Below, piece by piece: positions 26,677 to 41,568 of a stretch of DNA of 64,000 bases. This DNA comes from Magnetococcales bacterium (lineage in GTDB: Bacteria > Pseudomonadota > Magnetococcia > Magnetococcales > UBA8363). The stretch spans positions 19,350-83,349 of the forward strand of contig PEAK01000009.1 of the NCBI GenBank assembly GCA_002753515.1, read 5' to 3'. A model generated the notes under the pieces. That model ran no database searches, was not told the origin of the DNA, and saw nothing but the letters and a program-made list of their open reading frames with translations. Both the position numbers and the translations under genes were made by a program. How positions within the stretch are numbered: position 1 is the stretch's first letter; every line of letters starts with the position of its first letter.

Positions 26677-26851
26677 GACTGCTGCCTTTGATGGTCTTGC
26701 CACCCCATTGATGGGCTCGTGGTCGCGCAACGGCCCACACCCCAACAAAACACGGCCGCGCCCCTCTGTAACATCACCGAGGGATGCGACCGTCTCCAAT
26801 AGGTGGCCTTGCCGTGTTTCGTCAAAAATTCAACAAAGCGGCATCCATGCG

Positions 26852-27373
26852 TTAAGCCGCTTTTTCGCCCGCCAAGGCCCCTTTGCCTTGCGCACCCGCA
26901 TTTTGCAGTAACGAAAGCTCTGACGAGGAAAAAATTTTGTCGGTATCCAGAAGAATGACAAAATGGTCGCCTTGTTTACCCATCCCCCGCATAAAATCGG
27001 TACGCATTCCCGTACCAATCTTGGGGGCGGGATCAATATGTTCTGGATCCAGCTCCATCACTTCCTTGACCGAATCCGCCATGGCCCCGATCACCGTCGT
27101 CACCTCTTCCTGCACCACATCGATAATGATGATACAGGTATTGACCGTCCTTTCACTCTTGGCCATGCCAAACTTTAAACGCAAATCCACGACTGGTACC
27201 ACACTGCCACGCAGATTGATCACCCCACACATGAAATCGGGAGTCCTCGGAATCTTGGTCAAAGAGGTCCATTCCAAGACTTCCTTGATTTTGGAAATCT
27301 CAATGGCATACACCTCTTTATCCAGGTGAAACGTCAAAAATTGCGTTGATACGGTAATCCCCGGTACGCTCAT
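26852..27373 (-). CDS. cheW: Chemotaxis coupling protein CheW
   Basis: QFLTF..YAI..IKEVLE..GVINLRGSVVPVVDLR. Confidence 0.95.
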   Translation of the reverse strand: MSVPGITVSTQFLTFHLDKEVYAIEISKIKEVLEWTSLTKIPRTPDFMCGVINLRGSVVPVVDLRLKFGMAKSERTVNTCIIIIDVVQEEVTTVIGAMADSVKEVMELDPEHIDPAPKIGTGMRTDFMRGMGKQGDHFVILLDTDKIFSSSELSLLQNAGAQGKGALAGEKAA

Positions 27374-27399
27374 AGCCCTATCCTCCCCTGGTCAATCAA

Positions 27400-29103
27400 T
27401 CAAAATGATTCAAACTCATCATCGGCATGTTTGTCTTGGCCCATCTTGAGATCCACCCCATCCGATTTGGGTGGAGGCAAGGCCACCGCCTTTTTCTTCC
27501 CGGCATGAAGAACCGGTTTTTTAATATGGGCGACCTGGGTCTTGTGATGAGACTTGGACGGCGTGCCACGCCCCACTATCCTGGACTGATTCCCCAGATT
27601 GAAAAAAGCAACGGATTGGCCCATCATGTCGGCCTGGGCATTCAGCTCTTCCGCCGTGGCCGCCATTTCCTCTGAAGCACCTGCATTTTGCTGGATCACC
27701 TGATCCAATTGTTGAATCGCCTGGTTAATCTGCGATGCCCCTTGATTCTGTTCCTGGCTTGAAGCGGCAATTTCCTGGATTAGTTCTGCGGTTTTTTGTA
27801 TGTCAGGGACCAGTTTGTTGATAATCCCGCCCGCTTTCTCCGCCACGCTGACACTTGAAGCGGACAATTGACTGATCTCGCCCGCAGCCGACTGACTGCG
27901 TTCCGCCAGTTTTCTCACCTCGGCGGCGACCACCGCGAACCCCTTGCCATGCTCCCCCGCACGAGCTGCTTCGATAGCGGCGTTCAAGGCCAACAGATTC
28001 GTCTGCCGCGCAATTTCTTCAATGATTCCGATCTTGGAAGCAATCTCCTTCATGGCCTGTACCGCTTCACCGACAGCCGCGCCCCCTTCCTCCGCATCCT
28101 TGGCCGCTTTTTGTGCAATGGTCTGGGTGGTTGAGGAATTATCGGTGTTCTGCGAAATATTGGACGACATCTCCTCCATGGCCGAAGAGGTTTCCTCAAT
28201 GGAAGCGGCCTGTTGCGTAGCCCCCTGAGACAATCCCTGCGCCGCATCGGAAATTTGCGTACTCCCCGAAGAAACCTGCGCCGAAGCCGCGGCGACATCG
28301 CCAATCACCTGCCTGAGCTTGTCCGTCATCTTGTTCATCGCCGCACCCAGGGTTCCCACCTCATCGTGCCGATCAATGGTAACCGATTGCGTCAAATCGC
28401 CATTCGCCAAGGCTTCGGCTAGCCGCACCCCCTCGTTTAATGGAACGGTAATGGAACGGGATATGCTAAATCCCAGCAACAGTCCAAAAACCAGAGCAAA
28501 TACGGTAAATCCCACGATCAGATTGCGACTGGCGTGGTACAGCGCCGTGTTGTCGTCCGATACTTGCTTGGCGCGGGCTTCCTTGAAGTGAGATATTTCC
28601 TCGACCCGTTTATCAACCACATTGAGCTTTTCCCGAGCCTTGCCAAAACTCAACTCGGTAGCTTTTTTGAGAGCATCCGCACCCTCGCCCTGAGCCATTT
28701 TGATCACTTCCTTATGAACCAATTGCCATTCGGCAATCTCCGACTCCAACTTACCCACCAAGTCCTTACCCTTTTCGGTATAAAACTTGGTCTTGGTTTC
28801 CGCCATATCTTTCTGGAGTTCTTGATAGAGTGCAGGTAGCTGACCTAAATATCTCTCTTTCATCTCCTTGGAGGCTGCAAGTAAAAAATTTTTTTCTGCA
28901 CGGACGATTTTATTAATATCAATATAGACCTCCTTGATGATTTTCACCCCTTGCAATTCATACTCATACATTTGCGTGTCGGCCGCATCCAACGCACCCA
29001 TATTGACGATGCCAATTCCCCCAACACCTGCCATCAGAGCCAAGATGAATAAAAAGGCAGCAATCAGCTTGGTGCCAATTTTCATATCTTTAATCCACTG
29101 CAT
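27400..29103 (-). CDS. Methyl-accepting chemotaxis protein (4HB sensor, HAMP, signalling domain)
   Basis: Two TM helices, a HAMP domain and [40 protein letters not shown]. Confidence 0.96.
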
Positions 29104-29353
29104 CGCCCTCTTCTCCCACGATTGTTTGTTGAACAATTATACAATCTATTTATCACTCCATCAAATCCATTTGGAGCAATCTTGATGAATAACCCGATTC
29201 AATGAACACCCGTACATATCCGTTGAACTCCTACACGATCCAACGGCCCTAAGCAAATCAAATATTTTATTGTTTATGTCAACCAAATCTATCATCCTGA
29301 GCTCTACCACGATTGTTTGCTTCCGTTTCAGTCGGCCCGGGAAGGATACCAAT

Positions 29354-29380
29354 AAAAAAGCGGCCCCGAAGAGCCGCCTT
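29354..29380 (-). terminator. Rho-independent terminator ending the SCP2-RND-sgp cluster
   Basis: GCGGC/GCCGC stem followed by a U-tract on the minus strand (AAAAAA on plus), just downstream of the stop at 29404. Confidence 0.75.
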
Positions 29381-29403
29381 GAACACCATCCGAAGCAACC
29401 GGC

Positions 29404-29880
29404 TTATTTGCCGGGAGCGGCCTCTGCAGGTGCTGGAGAAGCCGGAGGGGCACCCCAACCCGGGCCACCATAACCACCTCCCGGATAACCACCACCCCAA
29501 CCCGGACCACCGTAACCACCTCCCGGATAACCACCACCCCAACCCGGACCACCCCAACCACCACCCGGGTATCCGCCATAGGGACCATAGCCATAGCCGT
29601 TGTTCATACCGTTGTTCCAACCGTTGTTCCAACCGTTGTTCCAACCATTATTACCCGAACCACCGCCATCGCCGCTCATATTGAAACCAAAGCTTCCTGA
29701 ACCCCGGCCACTCCCACTACCATTGCCGTTGCCATTGCCGTTGTTCATCCAATTGTTGCCCCAGTTGCCATTATTATAGCCGGGACCATTACCCCACCAA
29801 GCCGATGCCTCCTTGGCCTGGATCATACCCATGCCACCCAACAAGGCGGCGACTGCCATCGCAGTCAGTGTTTTTTTCAT
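29404..29880 (-). CDS. Sulfur globule envelope protein, SgpA/SgpB-like
   Basis: Sec signal ending ASA|WWG-GPGY, an FNMSG motif, GYG/GPY/GGYP repeats and a Pro/Ala tail ending AAPGK. This is the layout I recall for Allochromatium vinosum SgpA. Confidence 0.75.
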   Translation of the reverse strand: MKKTLTAMAVAALLGGMGMIQAKEASAWWGNGPGYNNGNWGNNWMNNGNGNGNGSGSGRGSGSFGFNMSGDGGGSGNNGWNNGWNNGWNNGMNNGYGYGPYGGYPGGGWGGPGWGGGYPGGGYGGPGWGGGYPGGGYGGPGWGAPPASPAPAEAAPGK

Positions 29881-29942
29881 ACATTTTCTCCATCAGGTTG
29901 ATTAAAAAACAAAATTTCGGACAAAAAATCGAACTATCCAAA

Positions 29943-30326
29943 CTACCACCCCCAGCCACCAGGACCTCCCCAGCCGCCAGGACCTCCCCAACCGCCAGGA
30001 CCCCAACCACCAGGCCCCCAACCACCGGGTCCCCAACCATTATTGCCCCAGCCATTGTTACCCCAGCCGTTGTTCCACATGTTGTTCCAGCCATCGCGGG
30101 TCCAGCCGTCCACATCGCCTTCAATTTTAAAATTGAGCCGCCCCGAACCACGACCGCTACCATTATTGTTCCAATTATTGTTATTACCCCAATTATTTCC
30201 CCAGTTATTCCATCCCGGACCATCGCCCCATCCCGGCCCCCACCAAGCCAGAGAGTCCGCAGGAGCCATTGCCAGAATACCACCGAGCAACGCCAGCAAA
30301 GTTACCATATAATATTTTTTTCTCAT
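29943..30326 (-). CDS. Second sulfur globule protein-like paralog (Gly/Trp/Asn-rich)
   Basis: Signal ending SLA|WWGPGWG. Shares GSGRGSG with its neighbour and has GWGPG repeats. GAGGAG lies upstream of the ATG at 30326. Confidence 0.68.
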   Translation of the reverse strand: MRKKYYMVTLLALLGGILAMAPADSLAWWGPGWGDGPGWNNWGNNWGNNNNWNNNGSGRGSGRLNFKIEGDVDGWTRDGWNNMWNNGWGNNGWGNNGWGPGGWGPGGWGPGGWGGPGGWGGPGGWGW

Positions 30327-30533
30327 AACCATACTCCTCGCCACAAGAAAAGGAAAACCACCACCCTGCGACCTGCCGGAAAAGCAAAGGATCCTCATCC
30401 ACGGGAAGACCCCCAGCACGCCTGCGGTGAATAAAACACCGGCGAACCACCCCTGGTCCCCCGGACATGCCAACAACTCAAAATACCCTTGATCTTTCGT
30501 AATCAAGAAATGCTCTCAGCCAACCCACTCAAC

Positions 30534-31181
30534 CTACGGGTAATTGCCACCCCACGCACGATCATCCCACCGATAAGGCGACCCGTAGTACCGATTTCCT
30601 AACGTATCCCACGGTCGGTCCATACCATACCCGGGACCATAGCCATTTTGGATACCATAGCGGTTCCCATTCCAGGAACCATCGGGACCCGGTAACAGGG
30701 GTGCCCCGTGTTCCCATGGTGCCACGGCTCCAGCCCCGTAATACCCTTTACTCATCTCCCAGTCCCAATCCGCATAGGGGGAAGAGGAGATCCAAGGGTC
30801 ATACTCCATCAGTGGAGAACCCCAATACCCCCCCCACTGGTTCGCCCCCCAAGGGTCATACATGGGAACCGGGGCCCGATAGCGCCGCACGTCACGTGCC
30901 CGCCCCTCTCCCGTACCATACCCGCCTTCCCCCCACCTGGGATCGTATCTTTCACCATGAGCACGGTCCCGATTCCAATCCGTTCCCCTGCCTCCCAAGC
31001 GGCCATCACCAGCATCACGATCCCGATTTGCCGCTGATTGTCCCATCTCGTGGACAAACGAACCCATAAACCTGCCAAACCGCCCCCCCAAATCCTGAAG
31101 CTCCCCACCATCACCCGCACAGGCCACCCCACTCGCCATCAGTAGCGCCAATCCCGAAAAACCCGTGGACAGTGATCGCAT
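30534..31181 (-). CDS. Secreted Gly/Trp/Tyr/Arg-rich low-complexity protein
   Basis: Signal peptide ending VACA; YDP(R)W motifs; GYGPGYG. Confidence 0.65.
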   Translation of the reverse strand: MRSLSTGFSGLALLMASGVACAGDGGELQDLGGRFGRFMGSFVHEMGQSAANRDRDAGDGRLGGRGTDWNRDRAHGERYDPRWGEGGYGTGEGRARDVRRYRAPVPMYDPWGANQWGGYWGSPLMEYDPWISSSPYADWDWEMSKGYYGAGAVAPWEHGAPLLPGPDGSWNGNRYGIQNGYGPGYGMDRPWDTLGNRYYGSPYRWDDRAWGGNYP

Positions 31182-31378
31182 CTTCCCACCCCCAACCACA
31201 GTGCGCGGCAAACCATTTTCCTGAATCACTACAAGTTATCCAAAACTCGCCCATCGATTATGGCTGTGATCCCTGCCAAAGACCAGGGGATAAATTCTGA
31301 TTATGTCATTATTCTAATATTATTAATTTCTAATATACAGGGTTCCAAGAGGCTTGGCAAGAAAAAATATCCCCCCCT

Positions 31379-32077
31379 CTATTTATTTTCCGTCCCACCC
31401 GCAACCGATGCGGGTTGCACCTTTTTAAATCCTTCCGGCACCTCAAAAAGGGCGGCTGCCTGGGGCTCGATGCGAATATTCTCCAAAGTGACTTCCAACC
31501 CATCGACATAAAGCTCACGGACAGCAATCCTCAAAAGCCTGTCCACCCACATCCGCCCATAAGGCTTGACCCCCCCCTGATCGGAACGCAAGGATATCTC
31601 CCAAAGACGCGTCTCCCGCCCTCCAACACTTTGAACCCCCATCTCACGACAAACAAACCGTCGATCCTTGCGACACGGACTTTCCGGCTCATCCGGAAGC
31701 GGAGGACGTGCAATGTCCAATCCTTCCGACTCCGTGTATTCCTTGGTTGTGGGAGACAGCATCCACATCCGTTTTTCCCGAGGACGGAAAATCATCCACA
31801 CCGACTGCCCCATCCTTTCCCCTTCGGTTCGCACCCCATCGCGACCGACATACATCCGTCCCCTGCTCGTTCCATTGTTATCCTTGGCACCCTTACGCAC
31901 CACATCAGCGGAAAATTCCTGAATCGGATCCACCATCGAACTTTTTTTATCCTCAGCACGCACCCATGACGCGCAGCATAAAAAGGCCAGAAGCAAAGCC
32001 CCCAGCCTGACCACATCCAACCGCAAACCAAACGGCAAAACGTTGTAAAAGAAGGCCATCACAACCTGCCATGGCAT
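31379..32077 (-). CDS. Exported beta-rich protein, DUF4412/LolA-like (start uncertain)
   Basis: Signal ending WVRA; EFSADVV..GRMYV..VRTE..WVD..ALFEVPEGFKK pattern typical of DUF4412/LolA-fold proteins. Confidence 0.55.
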   Translation of the reverse strand: MPWQVVMAFFYNVLPFGLRLDVVRLGALLLAFLCCASWVRAEDKKSSMVDPIQEFSADVVRKGAKDNNGTSRGRMYVGRDGVRTEGERMGQSVWMIFRPREKRMWMLSPTTKEYTESEGLDIARPPLPDEPESPCRKDRRFVCREMGVQSVGGRETRLWEISLRSDQGGVKPYGRMWVDRLLRIAVRELYVDGLEVTLENIRIEPQAAALFEVPEGFKKVQPASVAGGTENK

Positions 32078-32165
32078 GCATGAATTTCTGAAAGACCAGA
32101 CCTGACCCGGCCACTCCTGACGTCAATCATCCGCAACCCAACTCCCAATAAATCCGGTTTCACAC

Positions 32166-32675
32166 TCACCAATCAAAGGGATCTGGATAATAATAAGGAG
32201 GCCCCATTCTATTGCCCCACCACCCGGGATCCGCATACCTTTCCCCCAACCTGCGCCATCCCCAGCCGGAACTTCGAGACCAAGATCCCACACCGAGAGC
32301 ATCATAATTAAAATCGGGCCAACCAAAAGTGTAGGGCATCGATGGCCTCTGGTACATGCCCATGGTACCCCAGCGACCACCATCAACACGTTCCTCATCG
32401 CCACGTCCGGTTTGCTGCCGATCCGCATTCCCTTCAGCAAACTCCGCAGGCACTTCCCCCCACGGACGCCTCTTTTCAGCACCCCCGGACTTGGATTCAG
32501 GCAAAGTTGGCTCGGCACCTACCCCATGATCGCGACGAAACGTCCCTGTGCCGCCATCAGTCCCAGGACGCAGACGGTAATACTCGCTACCCCACGGCAG
32601 CTCACCCGCTTGACCTGTACCAATGGACATCCCAACCAACAACGCAGTCACTGCCACTCGAAGATATGTCGACAT
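32166..32675 (-). CDS. Secreted Gly/Trp/Arg/Pro-rich low-complexity protein
   Basis: Signal ending GQA; RRPWGEVP motif; aromatic C-terminus PYYYPDPFDW. Confidence 0.6.
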   Translation of the reverse strand: MSTYLRVAVTALLVGMSIGTGQAGELPWGSEYYRLRPGTDGGTGTFRRDHGVGAEPTLPESKSGGAEKRRPWGEVPAEFAEGNADRQQTGRGDEERVDGGRWGTMGMYQRPSMPYTFGWPDFNYDALGVGSWSRSSGWGWRRLGERYADPGWWGNRMGPPYYYPDPFDW

Positions 32676-32778
32676 GTCGTCCCAACCCACCGTCGACCCA
32701 AAACCAATGCCTTCATTGTTAAATCACATCCTTGAAGAAAACCGACAGCCCCGACAACTGACAAACATCATACCAAGT

Positions 32779-33711
32779 CTAACGCCACGGGCCACGATAG
32801 CCGCCACCATTGAGTGAAAAATCCTCCGGCCCCAGGTAAGGATCCGTGGGAAATCGGTTCCATCCATCCCGCTCATATCCAGAATCGTACGGGCGCATCC
32901 ACGTGTTTGGAGAAGAATTCCATCCTGATCCCCGACTATCGCGATTCACCGCATCATAGCGACTGCCCCAGGAAAATGCCGCACCACCTGTGCTGTTACC
33001 ACTTCTGGAGGCATCATACCCCCCGCGCCCGGAATAATCACCAGCCCACCCTCGATCCAAGGCCGGACCTTCGCCATAGCGGTTGGCATAAGGGGGGGCA
33101 TCTCGGTATCCGACGGATCCGGAATAATCACCCGGGTAACCCGCTCCGGGGTTCACCCGGTAGCCATTCTCCTGACCATAGCCCCCGAGACCATCACCCC
33201 GATTCCCGGCATTCAATCCATTCTGGCCAACCGGAGGGAGCCCTGGCCCGACCGGATACGCAGGACGACGCCCTTTGCGCAAATAGTAGGGGTCAATTTC
33301 ACGCCTGGGGTCCAAAGTATCCGGATCCACATCCTGCCCAGGTGGAGCAACAGGGGCCATCGCCTCACGCCCAGCATCGTACACCCCCATTTTCGGTGAC
33401 ACATAAGGCGCGTCAAACACCGGCACCCCGACAGCTCGATCACCGGAATACCGGCCTCCATCCGTACCCGAACGATCTCGAACACCCTCACCTTCATCGC
33501 GGAATCCGGGGGGAGGATCCCAATAACGACCATCCCGACCTTGCGATTCCAAGCCCCGACCCGGGGGCGGCGTCTCCAAACCTCGCGTCGGCAAATCCTT
33601 GGCTTGTCCTGTGCCCGGCTTGCTGTCCTCGCCAAACACCAATCCTGGAATCAAACTTAAAACACCCAGCAGCGAACATCCAATCTTTGCCAAACACGAT
33701 CGAGGCATCAT
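32779..33711 (-). CDS. Secreted Gly/Pro/Tyr/Arg/Asp-rich low-complexity protein, translationally coupled to the RND pump
   Basis: Signal ending LVFG. Its ATG overlaps the RND stop codon (ATGA at 33711-33708). Confidence 0.65.
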   Translation of the reverse strand: MMPRSCLAKIGCSLLGVLSLIPGLVFGEDSKPGTGQAKDLPTRGLETPPPGRGLESQGRDGRYWDPPPGFRDEGEGVRDRSGTDGGRYSGDRAVGVPVFDAPYVSPKMGVYDAGREAMAPVAPPGQDVDPDTLDPRREIDPYYLRKGRRPAYPVGPGLPPVGQNGLNAGNRGDGLGGYGQENGYRVNPGAGYPGDYSGSVGYRDAPPYANRYGEGPALDRGWAGDYSGRGGYDASRSGNSTGGAAFSWGSRYDAVNRDSRGSGWNSSPNTWMRPYDSGYERDGWNRFPTDPYLGPEDFSLNGGGYRGPWR

Positions 33712-36700
33712 AAGTCCCCGTTACCACCTTCATTAAAACTCTTTGGTTTCAAACGAATTCCCCTACGCCCGGCAGTTCCACCCTGACCCTTCTGACCTCG
33801 AACCGGGGCGGAAGTTCCAACACCGGTCACATGTCCCGACTCCGGTTGCACCTCCGCTTTGGGCAACTCTGCGTTCTCCTGAGTGCTGGACACAATCACG
33901 GGAGTCACTGGCACCTCTAAACCCGGCACTTCCTGACGCGAAGAAACCTCACCTTCCCCAGATGCAGCCAACGTTGCTTCACCCTTGTCAGTCTCAGTAA
34001 CACCCGCAACCGGTGAAACAACAATCTGGGGATCCACAACCGGAACGGACGCCGCTTCTTCCGAAGGGGTTGTCTTGCCTTTTTTCGCCGACCGGCCTTT
34101 ATTCGTGGAAGAACCTCCCAGTCGCAAATCTTCGTCCGATACGGTTTTGCTGGCCACCGTTTTACGCATCTCGTTCTTGACAGCCGTATAGTCCGATTTG
34201 TGTGCCCCGTGCAACTCCACCGGGGCAGCACCGGCATCCGGGTCACAAGCCACACCCCGCAACGGAATCTCGATACCCGATGCACCCATGGCCGCGAGTT
34301 CCGCAGGATCAGGATGCACAAAAGCTTTCTGTGCCGTCACACAACCCAGTGGAATAACCAACAACGTCAACAGCGTCGAGACCAGGGAGCCGAACAGCAA
34401 TGAAATCGCCATCCCCTGAAAGATAAAATCGCCCAGGATGACACTCGACCCGGCCACCAAAGCCAGAGCCGTAATCAGAATGGGACGCGTTCTGGCCTTG
34501 CACGACAGGATAACCGCATCCCGTACCGAGGCCCCCTTCAGAATCTCTTGCTGGGCAAAGTCGACCAGCAGGATGGAGTTGCGGACAATGATACCCGCCA
34601 GGGCGATGAAACCAATCATCGACGTTGCCGTAAACTTGGCATTCAGCAACATATGGCCGGGTATGATGCCCAGCAACGTCAGCGGAATCGGTGCCATGAT
34701 GATAGCCGGCAAAATAAAGTTGCCGAACTCCCAAACCACCAACATGTAGATCAGGATCAACGCCGCACCGAAAGCCATCCCCATGTCGCGGAAAGTCTCA
34801 TAGGTGACCGTCCATTCGCCGGTCCACTCAAAACCCGATTGGCTGTAATTTTCCGGCGGTCCGAGATAATTACCCGACATGTAGACCCCATCCGGCGTCT
34901 TGTAGGTTTTAAGCACCTTTTCCACATCCGACATGGCATAAATCGGCGCATCCAATCGTCCCGTCACCTCCCCGGTCACGAATTCCACCGGACGCAAATC
35001 CTTGTGGAAGATAACCGGATCCTGCATATCCTTGACAAAGCGACCCAACTCACCCAGCGGCACCGCCGTCCCTTCCGGAGTGGAGATGGGCAGATCACTC
35101 AAACTGGAAATTTTGGATCTGATTTCCAACGGCACCTGGATGACGATATAGGTGGGCTCCAGGATGCTCCCCCCCTTGACATCACCGAGCTGCGCACCAC
35201 CCATGGCCATGCCCAGATTACGGTTGATGGCATCCACGGAGATACCCCGGCGTACCGCCTTCTCGGTATCCACCTCGAAGCGCCAGAATTCAAAAGGTTT
35301 TTGGATATAATTGTCAGCATCGACAATGTTTGGGGTATTTTCAAAAATTTGTGTCAAATGCTCCGCCACCTGCCGGCGAATCGCCGCAGTCGGACCCGTC
35401 ACCTCCGCCACCACCGATTGCAAAACCGGTGGTCCAGGAGGCATCTCCACAACCTGGATGCGCGCCCCCACCCTCTTGGCATAGGGGGTCAAAATCTCGC
35501 GTGCCGCAACAGCCAAATCATGGCTGGTACGCTTGCGCAGCTTTTTATGCAGAAGCTGCACCTGAATATCCCCCTCCCACGAGTTGCGGCGCAAATAATA
35601 GTGCCGCACCATGCCATTGAAGTTGAATGGCGATGCCGAGCCAACATACGTTTGCATGGCCGTGATTTCAGGCACCTGTTCCCGCAACATTTCGGTCATA
35701 CGGTTGGCAACGTTGACCGTCCTGGGTAACGCCGTCCCCTCCGGCATATGCAGGACAACGTCAAACTCCGGTTTGTTGTCCAACGGCAGGATTTTCACCG
35801 TGACCGCCGTGGTATAAAACAACAGCATTGAGGCAAAAAATCCCGCCACCAACAAACCCAGAAAGGCAAAACCTTTAAACCGGCTATCCAGCAAACCAGG
35901 GATAACCCAACGAAAGAACCGTTCCAGACGTTCCGTGGAACGATGCTCCTTTTCCGAATGCATATGCAGCGAACGCATGCTGGGTTTGATCAATTGCGCC
36001 AGCCATGGGGTGAAAATAAATGCGGCGAACAAGGAAAACAGCATTGCCACCGAACCCAGGGCCGGAATCGGCAACATGTAGGGCCCCATCATACCCCGGA
36101 CAAATCCCATGGGCAGCAGGGCGGCAATCACGGTGAACGTTGCCAAAATGGTCGGGTTTCCCACCTCGCGCACAGCATCGATGGAAATCAAATGGCAACA
36201 CCTGTCTTCCAAGAGCCAGCGCCGGTAGATGTTTTCCACCACCACGATGGCATCGTCCACCAGAATACCAATAGAAAAAATAAGGGCGAACAAGGAGACA
36301 CGGTCAATCGTGTAGCCCATGATCAAGGCCGCGAAGACCGTCATCAAAATCACCACCGGGATCACCACCAATGTCACCACCGCCGGCTTGAATCCCAAGG
36401 AATACCAAACCAACAAGGTCACCGCGATGGTGGCAATGAACAGTTTAAACAACAACTCGTTCACCTTTTCGTTCGCCGTTTCCCCATAATTGCGCGTGAC
36501 CGATACATGGACATTCTTGGGGATCAAATGGCCCTTCAACTCCGCCACCTTCGCCAACACCCCATTGGCCACCGTGACACCATTGGAACCCTTTTTCTTG
36601 GCAATGGCCAATGTCACTGCCGGTACACCGTTGGCCGGAGGGGTGTCACCCTGATAAGCGGGACCCGTGGTATAGGTGACCACCTGGCGGGTCTCCTCAG

Positions 36701-37574
36701 GACCGGCGAATACCCTGGCCACATCCCGGACATAAATCGGCGAATTAAAACGCGTCCCGACCATCAAACGCGAAACATCCTGGGCCGTCTTGAGAAAGGA
36801 ACCCGTGTAAACCGTATAGCCCTGATCACCATTCTCCAGATGACCAATACCCTGCTCGCTATTGGCGGTCTTGATCGTCTGGGCGATCTGATCCAGACTG
36901 ATCCCATAACCCGATAACCGTTCCGGGAATACCTCGACCCGGATCTGCTCGGCGCGACCACCAACCACAAACCCCTGGCTGGTGTTCTCAACCTGTTTGA
37001 TTTGTTGCAACACGTCCAAGGTCAAAGCCCTGAGGGCGCTGTCGTTGATATCCTCCGACCACAGCGTCAACGTAACAATGGGGACATCGTCCACCGCCTT
37101 GGGCTTCACCAGGGGACGTTGCACCCCCGGGGGCACCTTGTCCATATTGGACTCGATCCGGTCGTACAGCTTGACCAGCGACTGCTCCATGTCCTGGCCC
37201 ACGTCATATTCCACCGTGATCATCGCCTGACCACGCATGGAGGAAGAATAAACATGCTTCACCCCGTGGATTTCGCTCATGATCCGTTCCAGGGGATCGG
37301 TAACCAGGGTCGCCACCTGTTCCGATGAGGCACCGGGATATTGCACAAAAATATCAACCATCGGCACCGAAATTTGCGGATCCTCCTGCCGAGGCGTCAA
37401 GAACAAACCCATGACCCCCATGGCCAGACACGCAAACAAAAACAACGGTGACAGGGGGGAATGGATAAAGGCTTTGGCCATCGTGCCGGCCACGCCAAGG
37501 TTGTGGTGAGGCCCTTCCATCTTTTCAGGTGGTGGGGGCAATTTGTTTCCGCTGGAATCGGAGGCTTTGATCAT
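33708..37574 (-). CDS. RND (AcrB/AcrD/AcrF family) permease with ~200-aa low-complexity C-terminal tail
   Basis: PRQEDPQISVP, GILVDDAIVVVENI, GIIVRNSILLVDF and RTRPILITA motifs; 12-TM layout. Confidence 0.93.
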   Translation of the reverse strand: MIKASDSSGNKLPPPPEKMEGPHHNLGVAGTMAKAFIHSPLSPLFLFACLAMGVMGLFLTPRQEDPQISVPMVDIFVQYPGASSEQVATLVTDPLERIMSEIHGVKHVYSSSMRGQAMITVEYDVGQDMEQSLVKLYDRIESNMDKVPPGVQRPLVKPKAVDDVPIVTLTLWSEDINDSALRALTLDVLQQIKQVENTSQGFVVGGRAEQIRVEVFPERLSGYGISLDQIAQTIKTANSEQGIGHLENGDQGYTVYTGSFLKTAQDVSRLMVGTRFNSPIYVRDVARVFAGPEETRQVVTYTTGPAYQGDTPPANGVPAVTLAIAKKKGSNGVTVANGVLAKVAELKGHLIPKNVHVSVTRNYGETANEKVNELLFKLFIATIAVTLLVWYSLGFKPAVVTLVVIPVVILMTVFAALIMGYTIDRVSLFALIFSIGILVDDAIVVVENIYRRWLLEDRCCHLISIDAVREVGNPTILATFTVIAALLPMGFVRGMMGPYMLPIPALGSVAMLFSLFAAFIFTPWLAQLIKPSMRSLHMHSEKEHRSTERLERFFRWVIPGLLDSRFKGFAFLGLLVAGFFASMLLFYTTAVTVKILPLDNKPEFDVVLHMPEGTALPRTVNVANRMTEMLREQVPEITAMQTYVGSASPFNFNGMVRHYYLRRNSWEGDIQVQLLHKKLRKRTSHDLAVAAREILTPYAKRVGARIQVVEMPPGPPVLQSVVAEVTGPTAAIRRQVAEHLTQIFENTPNIVDADNYIQKPFEFWRFEVDTEKAVRRGISVDAINRNLGMAMGGAQLGDVKGGSILEPTYIVIQVPLEIRSKISSLSDLPISTPEGTAVPLGELGRFVKDMQDPVIFHKDLRPVEFVTGEVTGRLDAPIYAMSDVEKVLKTYKTPDGVYMSGNYLGPPENYSQSGFEWTGEWTVTYETFRDMGMAFGAALILIYMLVVWEFGNFILPAIIMAPIPLTLLGIIPGHMLLNAKFTATSMIGFIALAGIIVRNSILLVDFAQQEILKGASVRDAVILSCKARTRPILITALALVAGSSVILGDFIFQGMAISLLFGSLVSTLLTLLVIPLGCVTAQKAFVHPDPAELAAMGASGIEIPLRGVACDPDAGAAPVELHGAHKSDYTAVKNEMRKTVASKTVSDEDLRLGGSSTNKGRSAKKGKTTPSEEAASVPVVDPQIVVSPVAGVTETDKGEATLAASGEGEVSSRQEVPGLEVPVTPVIVSSTQENAELPKAEVQPESGHVTGVGTSAPVRGQKGQGGTAGRRGIRLKPKSFNEGGNGDL

Positions 37575-37798
37575 GGTCCTTGTTACATCCGGAAATTAAG
37601 GGTGTATAAACACGAGTCCACAAACACGCCCCACTGCCACATCCTCAACTTGAGAGAACGGCCCTGGAGCCAAACACGATCACTTCCCTGGGGATATTCC
37701 GACCATCGACCCGACTTGGCAAGGTCTTCAATCACACCCCCCTACACGCAACTGGCAACACTCCCCCGATCAGATCGGTGGTTCAGCCAAACAAACCG

Positions 37799-39097
37799 CT
37801 AAAAAGCCTTGGACGGCTTTTCCACTTCCTTGCCATGGGTATCCCAACCACCAATCATGGCAGTCGGTGGCTCGGCATAAACCTTTTCCCCCACCTGCAA
37901 GCCGGACAAGACGCTGACCGATTCCTTCTCCACATGCCCCCCGAGGCGAACCATGCGTAACTCCGGTTCTTTCCCTTCATTCGCGATCAGGACAGCCGGT
38001 AAAGAGCCGCGCCAAATCACCGCTGTTTTGGGTATGATCGGCATGTTGCGCACCGGCGTGGTCACATCGGGTATCATCACCTCGGCATACATCCCCGGCC
38101 CCGCCAACGACCCCTTGGCCAGATCCAACTTGACCGTCACCGTATGCCGCTGCGGATCCGCCATGGGAAATACCTGCGCCACCTGCGCCTCCGCTTCGAT
38201 ACCCCCTACATCCAACTTGGCGGGCACCGTCATCCCTTTTTTGATTCCGGTCATGAGGCGTGCCGGAACCTCCACCTTGATTTGGAGACGCCGTGTATCC
38301 GCAAAGCTGATCAATGGCATTCCCGGCTGCACGGTGTCACCCACTTCGACACGTTTGGCCACAATCACCCCGGCAAACGGGGCAATGGACTTGGTATCCC
38401 GTAATTTGGCCTCAAGCTCCTGCAAGGCGGCCTGCGCCTGGGCAAGGGCATACCTGGCCTGATCAATCTGCGTCCCCTGGGCGTAAATCTGCGCCCTGCG
38501 CGTCAATTCAGGACTGTCCACCCCCAACATATCGGACATGGGACGGGTCATCACCCGGTCGAACATACGCGGCATGTCCATCCCCATATTGTCCGAAGCC
38601 ATGCTCGATCCCGAATAAACCTGACGGGTATACTGCACTCGGGCATTGCGCCAGTTGGAGGTCGCCGTTGCCAAGGCCGCCTCAGCCGATCGATGCTTGG
38701 CCAGGAGGTCGTCCTCATCCAAAGCAACCAGGATGACACCCTTCTTGAACCAATCCCCCTCGACGCCGGCTACATACTCAACCCGCCCGGGCATTTGCGC
38801 CGCAAAAGAGACTTCCCGGTATGGCACAACCGTTCCACCCAAGGTTGTCGTAGCGCCAATAGCTGCCTCCTCCACGGTGACGACCCGCAAACCAGGGGCC
38901 GCAGTCGCACCTGTTGCCACCGGAGCCGCACTGCCACCTGCAGCCCAAGAGACCTCCCGGTGGCTGACCCAGACCGCAAGCGCTATCGACAACGCTATCA
39001 ACGCGACAAATTGCCTCATGGAACCAACCACCTTAAAAGCCCAGGGCCCCACCATCAAGCGCACCTCACCTGAAAAAAACGGGTTGCGGTACGACAA
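37799..39097 (-). CDS. RND periplasmic adaptor (membrane fusion protein)
   Basis: AQMPGRV..EGD, coiled coil, IAPFAGVIV..VEVGDTVQPG, PGMYAEV and VLSGLQVGE. The start may be 39055 or 39019. Confidence 0.9.
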   Translation of the reverse strand: MSYRNPFFSGEVRLMVGPWAFKVVGSMRQFVALIALSIALAVWVSHREVSWAAGGSAAPVATGATAAPGLRVVTVEEAAIGATTTLGGTVVPYREVSFAAQMPGRVEYVAGVEGDWFKKGVILVALDEDDLLAKHRSAEAALATATSNWRNARVQYTRQVYSGSSMASDNMGMDMPRMFDRVMTRPMSDMLGVDSPELTRRAQIYAQGTQIDQARYALAQAQAALQELEAKLRDTKSIAPFAGVIVAKRVEVGDTVQPGMPLISFADTRRLQIKVEVPARLMTGIKKGMTVPAKLDVGGIEAEAQVAQVFPMADPQRHTVTVKLDLAKGSLAGPGMYAEVMIPDVTTPVRNMPIIPKTAVIWRGSLPAVLIANEGKEPELRMVRLGGHVEKESVSVLSGLQVGEKVYAEPPTAMIGGWDTHGKEVEKPSKAF

Positions 39098-39107
39098 AAT
39101 ACTGACT

Positions 39108-39503
39108 TCAGACGCGTCCCATCACCGAGAAGGATTTGATGAATGGTCCTGCCATGCGAGGATCTTTAATCATGGCACCGTAGTCACCCACATTAAATTT
39201 CAGCTTACGCGATGTATAGGCCATACCGAGCCCCATCATGCCGATCCCCTTGGAAATCCACTTCTCCCAATTGGCTTTGCTGGCGCGCAAATCCCAATTG
39301 ACCGGTTCCCCACCATAAGCACCGCTCTTAACGACCCTGCCCTTTTGCACTACGATCACTCCAATCGGTTTATCGTCACCTTCAAACCCGTAAGCGATGC
39401 TCGAATTGAAGTCGATCTCGGCCAAAGCGTCAGCCAACTCCTTTTCCTTGTTCCACTCTTCCTGAAACTTGTTCATCCATTCTGCGGAAAATAACTCAGC
39501 CAT
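39108..39503 (-). CDS. SCP2 sterol/lipid-carrier domain protein (cytoplasmic)
   Basis: LFSAEW..WN..DLRAS..W..GMAYTSRKLKF.VGD pattern of the SCP2 family. AAGGAG RBS; no signal peptide. Confidence 0.8.
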   Translation of the reverse strand: MAELFSAEWMNKFQEEWNKEKELADALAEIDFNSSIAYGFEGDDKPIGVIVVQKGRVVKSGAYGGEPVNWDLRASKANWEKWISKGIGMMGLGMAYTSRKLKFNVGDYGAMIKDPRMAGPFIKSFSVMGRV

Positions 39504-39728
39504 TTCAGCTCCTTTATTATGTTAAGAAAGGTTAGCGCATCGCCATCGGGGGAAGTCCCGTTGCCCGGGATCGCCATAGCACATCCCCCCGTGCAGAGTC
39601 CCATTTGCTCTTTGGTTTTGTTAATTTTTTCGCCAAGAGACCACTCTCCCGAAAAGCGCTTCACCATACCGCATCACAACCCGTTTGACAATCCCGATCT
39701 TCCCGCCCCGGAAAATTTCGGTAGTTCC

Positions 39729-39995
39729 TTACGTTAAACTGGCCGGCAATTCCCCTGGTTCCAACCGGTCCCACGCCACCAACACCAGCCGAGCGGCACG
39801 GTATTCACCGAATATTTTTATCTCATTGTTCTTGAAAATGCGGAAGGTTCCACTGGGATGGTCCGGCTTCATGACATCCGCAGGGTCAAGGATGTAGCAC
39901 AGTTCGTCACTGCTCACCTGCTCCTGAATCTCCACCCACACGAACAGCTCATCTTCGTAATGCCAGAAATCAGAGAAAAACGTATTCGTTTTCAA
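39729..39995 (-). CDS. Small hypothetical protein
   Basis: 88-aa ORF with a TTG start and protein-like composition, filling an intergenic gap. No recognisable motif. Confidence 0.35.
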   Translation of the reverse strand: MKTNTFFSDFWHYEDELFVWVEIQEQVSSDELCYILDPADVMKPDHPSGTFRIFKNNEIKIFGEYRAARLVLVAWDRLEPGELPASLT

Positions 39996-40191
39996 AGAAG
40001 TTCGAGGAGCATGAGGCTGTGAGTCGGTTGATGGTGTCCCATTACAACTTCTGTTGGCAGCCTCGAACCTTGCGGATCCCTATTGGGAACCGGCACTATC
40101 AGTGCCGTACTGCCATGGCCGTCAGGCTGACGGATCACTCCTGGCACCACAATTTTCTGTGATTATTAGCGTAAACGAACCCACCCCCCCC

Positions 40192-41568
40192 CTATTCCGC
40201 ATCTTCCACGACCTGCTGTACCTCTCCCCCAGCGGGAAAGCGATTCATCATCCACAACAACAGCAAAAGTCCCGGCATACCTGCCAGAGAGGTCGCCCAA
40301 AAATACCACTCCCAAGTCATGTGATCGGCCATCCATCCCCCAGCCGATGACAGAACGGTACGCGCAAACGCCATAAACGATGAAAGCAAGGCATACTGGG
40401 TGGCCGTGTAAGCAATGTTACACAGTGAAGACAGGTAAGCCACGAAAGCGGCGGTTCCCATGCCGCCCGCCAAATGTTCAATCAGGACGGTTGCCGCAAA
40501 CACTGCCATATCATGGCCAGAGCGCGCCAAAACAACGAAGGTCAGGTTGGAAAGCAATTGCAATACGCCACAAACCAGCAAGGCTTTCATAATGCCCAAG
40601 CGTTGCACAACCCAGCCACCAAAAAAAGCCCCGACAATGGTCGCCGTCAAGCCGACGACCTTGCTGATTTCCGCAATTTCGATACGGGAAAAACCCAGCT
40701 CGGTGTAAAAAGGATTGCCCATGACCCCGGTCAAGGCGTCACCCAATTTATAAAGCAATATGAACAGCAGTACTTGAACCCAACCTTTTCGCGACATGAA
40801 TTCGGCAAACGGACCAACCACCGCTGCCGATATCCATAATACGACCCGACGTCCCCTATCGTTCAAGCCATGGATACCGGCAATCCGTGCCCGCATCCTT
40901 TTTTCCAGTTTGATGGAAGCGCCACTAATTGGCACCTCCGGTTCCGGAGTCAGCAGGATGGTCACCATCCCCACACTCATAAGCCCCGCCATGATCAGAT
41001 AGGTCATGGTCCAACCGAACCAAGTCGCCAGATACAACGCCAAGGCACCCGAGGTCAACATGCCCAAACGGTACCCCAGGACCACAACCGCAGCCCCGGC
41101 ACCATATTGTTCCTCCTCAAGGATTTCCACCCTGTAAGCGTCAATGACAATATCCTGGGTCGCCGACCAGAATGCGGTCACCAGGGCGAATACAGCGGTC
41201 CACCAGGGAACCTCCCCGGGATGGGTAAAGCCCATGGCGGCAATGGAAAGCATGAGAAACAATTGCGTCAACAATGCCCAACTCCGGCGCCGACCCAGAA
41301 TATCCGTCAGCCATGGCACCGGCATGCGATCCACCAACGGCGACCATAAAAATTTAAACGTGTAAGGCACACCCGAAAGGGCAAAAAGGCCTATGGATGT
41401 TTTACTGACCCCCGCCTCGGACAACCACAGCGATAACGTTCCAAAGGTCAGGGCCAACGGCAATCCACTGGAAAACCCCAGCATCAAGACCGCAACGATT
41501 CTGGGATGCCCATAAATATGTAAGAACTCAGCTATGGCCTCCAGCAGGTTGGACGAACCCCATCGCAT
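40192..41568 (-). CDS. ampG: AmpG-family muropeptide MFS permease
   Basis: LGFSSGLP, KFLWSPLVD, GRRRSW, SATQDIVIDAYR and TATQYALLSS motifs. Confidence 0.93.
   Translation of the reverse strand: MRWGSSNLLEAIAEFLHIYGHPRIVAVLMLGFSSGLPLALTFGTLSLWLSEAGVSKTSIGLFALSGVPYTFKFLWSPLVDRMPVPWLTDILGRRRSWALLTQLFLMLSIAAMGFTHPGEVPWWTAVFALVTAFWSATQDIVIDAYRVEILEEEQYGAGAAVVVLGYRLGMLTSGALALYLATWFGWTMTYLIMAGLMSVGMVTILLTPEPEVPISGASIKLEKRMRARIAGIHGLNDRGRRVVLWISAAVVGPFAEFMSRKGWVQVLLFILLYKLGDALTGVMGNPFYTELGFSRIEIAEISKVVGLTATIVGAFFGGWVVQRLGIMKALLVCGVLQLLSNLTFVVLARSGHDMAVFAATVLIEHLAGGMGTAAFVAYLSSLCNIAYTATQYALLSSFMAFARTVLSSAGGWMADHMTWEWYFWATSLAGMPGLLLLLWMMNRFPAGGEVQQVVEDAE

Follow-up and report, generated by a model that had tools for sequence, protein, structure and literature searches.

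Many magnetotactic cocci carry sulfur globules, according to PMC6783814. The genome studied here, from the order Magnetococcales, contains dsrAB; soxB was not found in it. Nine neighbouring genes in this genome combine an RND pump with proteins that resemble SCP2 carriers and sulfur-globule coats, which raises the question of whether the cluster serves the handling of stored sulfur and, if so, in which direction and by what route the sulfur would travel.

Organization of the Gene Cluster

In the window, i.e., the whole stretch of 64,000 nucleotides that was analysed, nine co-directional ORFs span positions 39503–29404 and a single terminator closes the run (Table 1). The earlier note had described this arrangement together with an RND adaptor, an RND permease, the overlap of the next ATG with the permease stop and the lack of a TolC-type gene in the cluster, and all of these features were found again. 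The ORFs lie where they had been placed, the hairpin at 29380–29357 was detected, the overlap reads ATGA, the adaptor and permease were matched by both Pfam and NCBIfam, and no PF02321 (OEP/TolC) match was obtained anywhere on contig C2; about 14 such genes are located elsewhere in the genome. Among the nine cluster proteins, Pfam and NCBIfam matches were limited to the adaptor and permease, and the other seven had no Pfam match at E ≤ 0.1. Weaker promoter-like and terminator-like sites are also present inside the cluster, and with regard to co-transcription these count against the explanation that we prefer below. The cluster is real and conserved, and it is apparently undescribed so far, as no published description was found in the literature.

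Table 1. Features of the cluster, in the order of transcription (window positions).
Feature	Positions	Strand	Remarks
Cytoplasmic SCP2-fold protein, 131 aa	39108..39503	-	Predicted fold, conservation, Atlas lead
RND periplasmic adaptor (MFP)	37799..39097	-	HlyD_D23 4.7e-16; TIGR01730 3.6e-44
Met/Phe-rich insertion, GMxMPxMFDxxxTxPM	38537..38584	-	Alignment; predicted alpha-hairpin tip of adaptor
RND permease, ACR_tran, 1288 aa	33708..37574	-	ACR_tran 1.2e-148
Cytoplasmic C-terminal tail of RND, ~200 aa	33711..34322	-	Low complexity, sequence variable
RRGIRLK motif near RND tail end	33747..33767	-	Conserved across clade-A pumps
Secreted Gly/Pro/Tyr/Arg/Asp-rich protein	32779..33711	-	Start overlaps RND stop
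Secreted Gly/Trp/Arg-rich protein, no family	32166..32690	-	Relatives seen only in closest Magnetococcales loci
Secreted DUF4412-family protein, LolA-superfamily fold	31379..32077	-	EFSAD motif conserved; two invariant Cys
Secreted Gly/Trp/Tyr/Arg/Asp-rich protein	30534..31229	-	Probable start 31181
Sgp-like protein 2	29943..30332 (ORF to 30506)	-	Signal peptide; probable start 30332 or 30326
Sgp-like protein 1, divergent SGP-family member	29404..29880	-	Custom HMM score
Terminator-like hairpin, intrinsic type	29357..29380	-	10 pairs then T run; cluster end

The Pump and Its Adaptor

In a FastTree phylogeny the permease falls into a distinct monophyletic clade, here called clade A. The nearest solved structure is 6vej (TriC-like; E 1.7e-70), with MexK and MdtB also near. 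Two other assignments were tried and rejected: as a CusA/CzcA heavy-metal RND (TIGR00914) the permease scored 248 bits (cut-off 701), and as an HAE3 (HpnN-type) RND (TIGR00921) 22.2 bits (cut-off 351.9). TM10 carries an Arg, and the TM4 motif VDDAIVV, with the Asp-Asp pair of the proton relay, is kept in the permease and in all RND clades compared. Because this pair is conserved, the clade-A pump is probably active. Of the 23 clade-A pumps inspected, 22 contained the RRGIRLK motif; none of 6 cyanobacterial and none of 11 clade-C pumps had it.

For the adaptor, alternative Met codons at 39055 or 39019 may be the true start. Its tip insertion is kept in the Magnetococcales and gammaproteobacterial orthologues and missing from the cyanobacterial adaptors in the alignment, and it is conserved in clade A only. 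From what is generally known of adaptor tips, such an insertion may bear on OMF docking. A search with a single OMF query returned no OMF in any of 80 loci; an ordinary RND paralogue on C124 adjoins one.

Predicted Carrier and Coat Proteins

The SCP2 protein has neither a signal peptide nor Cys, contains 6.1% Met, and is extremely conserved, with 66–98% identity across Magnetococcales, Gammaproteobacteria, and cyanobacteria. The Pfam SCP2 model (PF02036) left it unmatched at E ≤ 0.1, and a PDB sequence search returned nothing below an E-value of 0.28. The name SCP2, given to it earlier, is supported by the predicted model (pLDDT 80.9), which has the alpha/beta SCP2 fold with the Thermus SCP2 structure 2cx7 as the top Foldseek match (TM 0.78, E 1e-6). 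Further matches were 1wfr and the UbiJ-SCP2 structure 6h6o, and homologues are annotated at source as 'SCP-2 sterol transfer family'. Similarly, PF14371 (DUF4412) did not match the window protein 31379–32077 in the Pfam search, and its earlier label, DUF4412/LolA-like, is borne out by the orthologue in locus L026, which matches PF14371 (4.7e-7, 30.2 bits vs. a cut-off of 21.6), and by the LolA-like fold of the window model (pLDDT 89.7), which matched EPDR1, LolA, and RseB (E ~5e-8, TM 0.46–0.59).

The two last gene products, labelled Sgp-like by the earlier note, were unmatched by Pfam SGP (PF17228; membership cut-off 26.7 bits) at E ≤ 0.1 (ORFs 29404–29880 and 29943–30506), and a genome-wide search for the family was likewise empty. 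A second SGP HMM was built from eight Pfam-SGP-positive gammaproteobacterial neighbours, with the shuffled mature part as control (100 shuffles for Sgp1). With this HMM, Sgp1 (29404–29880) scored 44.3 bits vs. a shuffle maximum of 16.9, and Sgp2 without its signal peptide 5.9 bits vs. −26.3. The label thus stands despite the lack of a PF17228 match, since both scores exceed those of all shuffles: the two proteins resemble accepted SGPs in residue order, beyond a common composition. The two last genes are accordingly read, from their sequences, as predicted divergent members of the SGP family of sulfur-globule proteins. The mature part of Sgp2 starts with AWWG and its body is rich in Gly, Asn, and Trp.

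Of the remaining secreted proteins, the one directly after the pump has a counterpart at the same place in many clade-A loci, where the next gene encodes a Pro-rich secreted protein in 25 of 42 entries. The protein 30534–31229 shows 25–45% identity among Magnetococcales loci; a weak Atlas match to the 'sulfur globule protein CV3 family' (score 0.77) is a lead only.

Conservation and Co-Occurrence

Synteny was assessed in 80 loci, comprising 526 kb of upstream and 633 kb of downstream sequence. The SCP2 gene was followed by the adaptor and RND genes in 16/16 Magnetococcales loci each, and among those gammaproteobacterial and other loci that extended far enough downstream by the adaptor in 40/53 and the RND in 37/49; SCP2 stood without an adaptor in 13/53 gammaproteobacterial loci. 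DUF4412 was found downstream in 13/13 Magnetococcales and 15/31 gammaproteobacterial loci, and the cluster order as such recurs in Magnetococcales and several gammaproteobacterial families. Altogether 22 Sgp-like ORFs were found in 16 of the 80 loci, all downstream of the module on the same strand, and none was found upstream in the 80 loci. Pfam SGP matched 8 of these 22 aligned proteins, which include the two from the window, at E ≤ 0.01; in locus L045 a Pfam SGP gene (1.6e-14) directly follows the pump.

Co-occurrence was counted in 400 genomes of one proteobacterial class, as raw counts with kinship ignored. On this basis, Pfam SGP was present in 45/73 genomes with a clade-A RND vs. 2/327 without, and SGP-positive genomes carried the clade-A RND in 45/47 and SCP2 in 41/47 cases. 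The coupling was not strict, as 8/68 SCP2 genomes had no clade-A pump, 13/73 pump genomes no SCP2, and 28/73 pump genomes no Pfam-detectable SGP. The 124 dsrA-positive genomes comprised 42 with both pump and SGP, 24 with the pump only, one with SGP only and 57 with neither, so that pump and SGP remained associated within this subset, and dsrA was present in 66/73 pump genomes and 61/68 SCP2 genomes. It was also present in 41/45 non-cyanobacterial SCP2 genomes vs. 0/14 control genomes. The module is thus far from equally common outside the SGP-carrying genomes, and it is frequently linked to sgp-like genes. Both the co-occurrence with SGP and the downstream sgp-like genes uphold the link to sulfur globules that the earlier note had drawn.

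Cyanobacteria carry a different version. The adaptor followed SCP2 in 6/8 and the RND in 6/7 of their loci, in the arrangement sqr-arsR-DUF3122-SCP2-rhodanese-adaptor-RND-DsbA, with a type I SQR (E 6e-98 to 3hyv) in 7/10 such loci. The SCP2 identity is ~67%, SGP and DUF4412 are lacking, and dsrA was found in 0/5 of the cyanobacterial SCP2 genomes searched. The pump lies outside clade A and groups with the clade of ordinary OMF-linked paralogues (FastTree, SH-like support 95); therefore, the sqr link may be a separate recruitment. An SCP2 that adjoins sqr and rhodanese without SGP, DUF4412, or dsrA suggests a cargo that all sulfide oxidisers share.

Proposed Role and Alternatives

That the module is tied to the handling of zero-valent sulfur is well supported, because the synteny, the SGP and dsrA co-occurrence, and the cyanobacterial sqr operon all speak for it. 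We regard it as somewhat probable that the cluster represents one copy of an envelope module, conserved in sulfur-storing bacteria, which handles zero-valent sulfur via a pump relay. We infer what is carried, in which direction it moves, and in what order it is handed on, and propose that the relay would lead from SCP2 through the pump to a periplasmic carrier, with S8 as the cargo. The proton-driven clade-A RND would work with its adaptor, in which a conserved hydrophobic Met/Phe-rich loop replaces the hairpin tip, and would take very hydrophobic sulfur (S8 or long polysulfanes) out of the cytoplasmic membrane; the Met-rich SCP2 might supply the pump with this cargo out of the cytoplasm. Transport would end with the release of the cargo into the periplasm, where the LolA-fold DUF4412 protein and the secreted low-complexity proteins, including the SGP-family coats, could take it up and enclose it as a globule. 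Known RND pumps load their substrates on the periplasmic side or from the outer leaflet, and we know of no precedent for a cytoplasmic carrier feeding an RND pump. The non-obligatory coupling of SCP2 and pump, the pump genomes without SGP, the position of the cyanobacterial pump outside clade A and the failure of Pfam to match the window SCP2, DUF4412, and Sgp proteins also count against this explanation.

A more detailed version of the relay is put forward tentatively, and we rather doubt it as a whole: a Met-lined SCP2 would capture S8 or polysulfane and pass it to the clade-A pump with a TolC-independent adaptor, then to the LolA-fold carrier and into SGP-coated periplasmic globules, and the cyanobacterial sqr sister system would expel the sulfur of anoxygenic photosynthesis. 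If true, elemental sulfur would be an RND substrate, and the module would be the first zero-valent sulfur transport machinery and the missing step of globule biogenesis.

An unlikely, but not negligible, alternative is that the pump clears by-products of sulfide oxidation, such as polysulfides, organic polysulfanes, or metal sulfides, and is co-regulated with the globule genes while being dispensable for globules. Its nearest solved relatives are indeed drug pumps, the Met-rich SCP2 and adaptor tip would suit soft metals too, and the 28 of 73 pump genomes without a Pfam SGP match fit such a role. In Azospira (PMC5358917), an SQR/RND/adaptor operon and other RND pumps were H2S-induced, the authors read the operon as possible metal-sulfide efflux, and its deletion left the H2S oxidation rate unchanged, which we also count against the relay. 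However, genomes that lack the pump hardly ever have SGP (2/327), the pump gene stands in a fixed order with those for the LolA-fold and secreted low-complexity proteins, and the permease is far under the CusA/CzcA cut-off (248 vs. 701 bits). Moreover, with no OMF nearby and an altered adaptor tip, release into the periplasm is a better fit than export out of the cell. The same synteny and co-occurrence would also agree with the export of a globule component other than sulfur, in which SCP2 and pump deliver a lipid or an organic polysulfane end-group or aid the assembly of the coat. SCP2 and LolA folds are classically lipid carriers, yet no conserved lipid-synthesis gene was found in the 80 loci, and the cyanobacterial version, devoid of SGP, DUF4412, and dsrA, keeps SCP2 beside sqr and rhodanese, so we consider this quite improbable.

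Transport in the opposite direction, with stored sulfur passing from the periplasmic globules to the cytoplasmic Dsr system and SCP2 as the acceptor, would account for the cytoplasmic location of SCP2 and the strong dsrA co-occurrence with pump and SCP2. It appears very unlikely, as RND pumps are known as exporters, dsrA was absent from all five cyanobacterial SCP2 genomes searched, and the pump is missing from 58/124 dsrA-positive genomes. Finally, the lack of Pfam matches for seven of the nine proteins and the internal promoter-like sites would suit an ordinary efflux operon that happens to lie beside secreted low-complexity genes in this lineage. This reading is strongly disfavoured and hardly credible, since the gene order recurs in Magnetococcales and several gammaproteobacterial families, the Sgp-like genes occur downstream only, and the SGP and dsrA figures speak against chance.

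Comparison with Known Systems

As in tripartite RND pumps such as AcrAB-TolC and TriABC-OpmH, the permease is of the ACR_tran type and has the TM4 Asp-Asp pair, and the gene just upstream encodes a HlyD-type adaptor. The cluster differs in that its pump belongs to a distinct clade with a ~200 aa cytoplasmic tail ending in RRGIRLK, the adaptor tip bears the Met/Phe-rich insertion, no OMF gene is nearby, and the operon is led by an SCP2 gene and trailed by secreted low-complexity genes. MmpL3 and HpnN would follow the proposed logic, as they release hydrophobic cargo to a periplasmic carrier and bypass TolC; they belong to the HAE2/HAE3 families and are not known to work with an adaptor, whereas the cluster has one and its permease is far below the HAE3 cut-off (22 vs. 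352 bits). CusCFBA also combines a small accessory carrier, an adaptor, and an RND with Met-rich accessory parts. CusF is periplasmic, whereas SCP2 is cytoplasmic, the CusA/CzcA score is far under the cut-off and the OMF is absent from the cluster.

LolA and the UbiJ/UbiT SCP2 families shield hydrophobic cargo in water, LolCDE-LolA in lipoprotein transfer and UbiJ/UbiT by binding quinones, and the DUF4412 and SCP2 models match LolA and UbiJ-SCP2, respectively. In contrast to these systems, the cluster has no sequence-level membership and no Lol or Ubi genes, and the DUF4412 family is set apart by an EFSAD motif and a conserved Cys pair. Like SgpA, SgpB, and SgpC of Allochromatium vinosum (PF17228), the two Sgp-like proteins carry a Sec signal peptide followed by a Gly-rich mature part of low complexity, and their motifs come in the same order as in PF17228-positive gammaproteobacterial proteins at the same operon position; the window copies differ in being Asn/Trp-rich and under the Pfam threshold. 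In A. vinosum the sgp genes lie singly at scattered places, and to our knowledge they have not been described within a pump operon. In Azospira suillum PS, which makes elemental sulfur, Dsui_3440-3443 encode an unknown protein, an RND pump, an SQR, and an adaptor (PMC5358917), and judged by gene content alone this operon resembles the cyanobacterial sqr-linked arrangement.

Layout of the Gene Cluster

The host genome comprises 4.33 Mb in 134 contigs, and the window occupies positions 19350–83349 of its contig C2. As the earlier note had described, nine co-directional minus-strand ORFs lie at 29404–39503, overlapping or separated by short gaps, and a terminator-like hairpin closes the cluster. 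The claimed overlap of the RND pump gene with the gene of the secreted Gly/Pro/Tyr-rich protein that follows was also seen, the TGA stop of the former being shared with the ATG of the latter (ATGA). Weaker promoter-like and terminator-like sites are found inside the cluster, and a single transcript is therefore plausible though unproven. An Rfam search of 29000–40300 returned nothing at E ≤ 0.1, and a sigma-54 promoter pattern matched 41 times in the window versus 39 times expected by chance, with no match in 39504–40200. Where the adaptor-pump spacer lies in the window, other loci have spacers of 100–250 nt and cyanobacteria a 171-aa gene. The ORFs directly downstream of the cluster were named from translations read by eye. 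The cluster proteins are 89–100% identical to those of locus L004, whose record is labelled Magnetococcales.

Features of the cluster, its surroundings and related loci (G000, host genome; C69 and C124, contigs of G000; L numbers, loci with relatives; clade A, SCP2-linked proteobacterial RND pumps)
Feature	Position	Strand	Remarks
SCP2-type protein, 131 aa	39108–39503	−	ORF
RND adaptor	37799–39097	−	HlyD_D23 4.7e-16; TIGR01730 3.6e-44
Adaptor Met/Phe-rich insertion, GMGMPxMFDxxxTxPM	38537–38584	−	Predicted helical hairpin tip; clade A
Non-coding spacer, 224 nt	37575–37798		Between adaptor and pump genes
RND permease, 1288 aa	33708–37574	−	ACR_tran 1.2e-148
RRGIRLK motif	33747–33767	−	Tail end; also in RND tails of L004–L081
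DUF4412/LolA-like protein	31379–32077	−	
Secreted protein	30534–31229	−	
Sgp2	29943–30506	−	Sgp-like
Sgp1	29404–29880	−	Sgp-like
Terminator-like hairpin	29380–29357	−	10 pairs and T run; cluster end
Downstream ORFs	23953–29136		Include a 948-aa ORF
MCP-like ORF	27400–29136		
CheW-like ORF	26852–27373		
3121-aa ORF	10723–20088	−	
Third Sgp-like gene, 155 aa	G000:C69:31547–31993		= L002:1480–1947
Nearest pump paralogue in host	G000:C124:5496–11247		Conventional OMF-adaptor-RND operon; 41% identity
ParA/MinD-like ATPase gene	L026:18980–19639		CbiA 1.2e-13

Identification of the Cluster Proteins

Pfam gave no match at E ≤ 0.1 for seven of the nine cluster proteins, and NCBIfam gave nothing useful for those seven. 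Apart from the SCP2-type protein, the adaptor and the pump, the N-termini of the cluster proteins (six) are signal-peptide-like. The family labels SCP2, DUF4412/LolA-like and SgpA/B-like, originally read from the sequence, were borne out by other evidence. Homologues of the 131-aa protein carry the source name 'SCP-2 sterol transfer family', and the structures matched by its AlphaFold model (pLDDT 80.9) include 2cx7, the SCP2 of Thermus (TM 0.78, E 1e-6), and UbiJ-SCP2; a search of PDB sequences with the SCP2 profile had no match below E 0.28. The protein lacks Cys, and its Met content is 6.1% (family mean 6.8%) versus 2.7% in neighbouring ORFs. The family is highly conserved, the best 120 of 2787 matches all being 68–98% identical. 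Named bacteria with a homologue include Magnetococcus marinus MC-1, M. massalia MO-1 and Magnetofaba australis. For the DUF4412/LolA-like protein, the orthologue in locus L026 reaches PF14371 with 30.2 bits (cut-off 21.6), and the model (pLDDT 89.7) matches EPDR1, LolA and RseB with E-values of about 5e-8 and TM scores of 0.46–0.59. Members of this family keep two invariant Cys and have an EFSAD motif at the N-terminus of the mature protein.

Three features, in this order, unite Sgp1 and Sgp2 with the proteins that occupy the corresponding place in operons of other loci: after the signal peptide comes A-x-A-WWG, the middle of the protein has a G-x-F-x-F-N-M-S-G block, and the tail is rich in Gly, Tyr and Pro. 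The Pfam sulfur globule protein model (PF17228, SGP) was reached at E ≤ 0.01 by 8 of 22 aligned Sgp-like proteins, and an HMM built from these eight scored Sgp1 at 44.3 bits, whereas none of 100 shuffles in which the signal peptide and composition were kept exceeded 16.9 bits. A third Sgp-like gene of the host, whose product is 63% identical to Sgp1, stands alone with no pump nearby. The Atlas search with the 30534–31229 protein gave only a sub-threshold lead (0.77) to 'CV3 family'.

Special Features of the Pump and the Adaptor

The TM4 Asp-Asp pair is kept in all pumps, and active, proton-driven transport is therefore probable. In clade A the pumps have a cytoplasmic tail of low complexity and variable sequence, 150–400 aa long (about 200 aa in the window), which closes with a near-invariant RRGIRLK, present in 22/23 clade-A pumps, 0/6 cyanobacterial pumps and 0/11 pumps of the paralogue class (clade C). 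A role of this motif as the SCP2 docking site was considered and not adopted, as cyanobacterial pumps keep SCP2 without the motif. The gammaproteobacterial pump tails show an extra hydrophobic helix after TM12.

The tip of the adaptor hairpin is the contact site for TolC-type channels. The conserved insertion at the predicted tip is common to the Magnetococcales and gammaproteobacterial orthologues only, the cyanobacterial adaptors being without it. In agreement with the earlier remark that no TolC-type outer-membrane factor (OMF) is encoded, PF02321 had no match on contig C2, which holds the cluster, while about 14 such genes are found elsewhere in the genome. Near the module, OMFs were found in 0/80 loci by tblastn with one OMF query from C124, a search by which divergent OMFs can be missed. 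A hydrophobic tip, together with the absence of an OMF from the vicinity, would be consistent with release into the periplasm, and the uninterrupted cyanobacterial hairpin with expulsion from the cell. We infer this contrast, which would agree with the places where the two groups deposit sulfur.

Occurrence of the Module in Other Genomes

With one genome per species, 576 SCP2 relatives were retrieved, and the best 80 of the 576 loci were used. According to the record labels, these belong to Magnetococcales, sulfur-oxidizing Gammaproteobacteria (Thiotrichaceae, including Beggiatoa-like bacteria and Thiomargarita, Ectothiorhodospiraceae, Thiohalomonadaceae and Thioalkalispiraceae) and filamentous cyanobacteria.

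Gene order around SCP2, by tblastn with the window proteins, in loci whose downstream sequence was long enough
Group	Adaptor after SCP2	RND after SCP2	DUF4412 downstream
Magnetococcales	16/16	16/16	13/13
Gammaproteobacteria and others	40/53	37/49	15/31
Cyanobacteria	6/8	6/7	0/5

When all ORFs of at least 60 aa were scanned by motif and composition (526 kb of upstream and 633 kb of downstream sequence), 16 of the 80 loci yielded 22 Sgp-like ORFs; each of these lies downstream of SCP2 and on the same strand, and none upstream. The gene directly after the pump encodes a Pro-rich protein with a signal-peptide-like start in 25/42 clade-A rows; ParA-like or other genes take this place in the Beggiatoa-like loci. 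No adaptor after SCP2 was found by tblastn in 15 loci (13 gammaproteobacterial/other-labelled and 2 cyanobacterial-type), and in the 10 of them that were inspected, SCP2 lies among unrelated genes. SCP2 stands alone in the gammaproteobacterial loci L020, L033, L037 and L051, with a gene of about 1300 aa before it and one of about 272 aa after it. In 14 loci the module ends downstream with a ParA/MinD-like ATPase gene, and in 15 a divergent gene for a DUF5658 membrane protein lies upstream of the module.

In the ten cyanobacterial-type loci the SCP2 identity is about 67%. The gene order is sqr, arsR-type regulator, DUF3122, SCP2, rhodanese, adaptor, (171-aa gene), RND and DsbA-like (L061, L068, L071, L074, L079, L030 and L080). 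The SQR, found in 7/10 loci, is of type I (6e-98 to the Aquifex enzyme 3hyv). In Geitlerinema, a type I sqr with arsR behind it has been described in connection with sulfide-driven anoxygenic photosynthesis, in a paper whose available part contains neither the word RND nor sterol (PMC5061849). The cyanobacterial loci are an independent link of SCP2 and an RND pump with zero-valent sulfur production, in organisms without SGP, DUF4412 and dsrA. In a FastTree analysis of 44 pumps, in which rows L028 and L092 were ignored as probably wrongly picked ORFs, the proteobacterial SCP2-linked pumps formed one clade (support 100), and the cyanobacterial pumps joined, with support 95, a paralogue class of about 45% identity that is widespread and sits in ordinary OMF-adaptor-pump operons, e.g., on C124 of the host genome. 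The cyanobacterial SCP2-pump pairing may therefore have arisen separately. The paralogue class is also present in many genomes without SCP2.

Co-Occurrence with Coat-Protein Genes and dsrA

Among 50 genomes holding SCP2 loci and 14 named control genomes, dsrA was present in 41/45 non-cyanobacterial SCP2 genomes, 0/5 cyanobacterial genomes and 0/14 controls, and Pfam SGP in 28/35 gammaproteobacterial/other genomes, 1/10 Magnetococcales, 0/5 cyanobacteria and 0/14 controls. A second set, an even sample of 400 genomes from the class to which the Ectothiorhodospiraceae-labelled genome G014 belongs, was searched with four queries and yielded SCP2 in 68, the clade-A pump (matches at E = 0 and 50–69% identity) in 73, SGP in 47 and dsrA in 124; these counts ignore shared ancestry, and some absences may reflect assembly gaps. 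The SGP genomes held the clade-A pump in 45/47 and SCP2 in 41/47 cases, and SGP was found in only 2 of the 327 genomes without the pump. The 124 dsrA genomes divided into 42 with pump and SGP, 24 with pump only, 1 with SGP only and 57 with neither. Therefore, the module follows the coat-protein genes and not sulfur oxidation generally. The converse is looser, 28/73 pump genomes lacking a match to the Pfam SGP model, which misses divergent Magnetococcales copies; in addition, 8/68 SCP2 genomes were without the pump and 13/73 pump genomes without SCP2. Profiling and synteny against sgp genes, the check proposed in the earlier note, spoke in favour of a link with sulfur globules, both in the pump-less genomes and in the loci with Sgp-like ORFs.

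Proposed Function

In the host genome dsrAB is present and soxB was searched for and not found, a pattern reported in freshwater Magnetococcales in a study that also describes sulfur globules in many magnetotactic cocci (PMC6783814). On these grounds the host fits a zero-valent sulfur reading. We consider with good confidence that the cluster is functionally tied to sulfur deposition, and we lean somewhat towards a module for handling zero-valent sulfur, with the mechanism in broad form. The pump would take a highly hydrophobic sulfur species out of the inner membrane, possibly also being fed from the cytoplasm by SCP2, and would release its cargo into the periplasm, where it would be taken into globules by the LolA-fold protein together with the secreted proteins of low complexity, the SGPs among them. 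That elemental sulfur itself is the cargo of the full relay is a tentative proposal, doubtful at present.

The same genes could be read otherwise. Protective efflux of toxic by-products by the pump is unlikely, and export of a globule component other than sulfur is less probable still. Mobilization of sulfur towards Dsr appears very improbable, and there is only a slim chance that the genes, recurring as they do in this order, are mere neighbours.

To our knowledge, the route of insoluble zero-valent sulfur to and from bacterial globules is a long-standing question of the sulfur cycle, and the only known parts for globules are coat proteins and oxidizing enzymes. The module offers named candidates, namely a pump, its unusually tipped adaptor, and one carrier each in the cytoplasm and the periplasm. 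In the sampled genomes, these candidates accompany the coat-protein genes in a nearly one-to-one manner. If the handling of zero-valent sulfur by the module is true, elemental sulfur would join the known RND substrates, periplasmic versus extracellular sulfur deposition would be explained, and a genomic marker of sulfur storage would be at hand for bacteria not yet in culture, among them magnetotactic cocci and giant sulfur bacteria.

No paper joining SCP2, an RND pump and sulfur globules was found in the literature search; supplementary tables, which lay outside it, may bear on sulfide induction (e.g., PMC5358917). The nearest published system is an H2S-induced operon of Azospira suillum in which the genes for an RND pump, SQR and an adaptor stand together with that of an unknown protein; its deletion left the oxidation rate unchanged, and the authors suggested metal-sulfide efflux (PMC5358917). 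New here are the position of the highly conserved SCP2 gene as the constant first member of the module, the link to the cyanobacterial sqr operon, the co-occurrence counts with SGP and dsrA, and the adaptor-tip and tail motifs.
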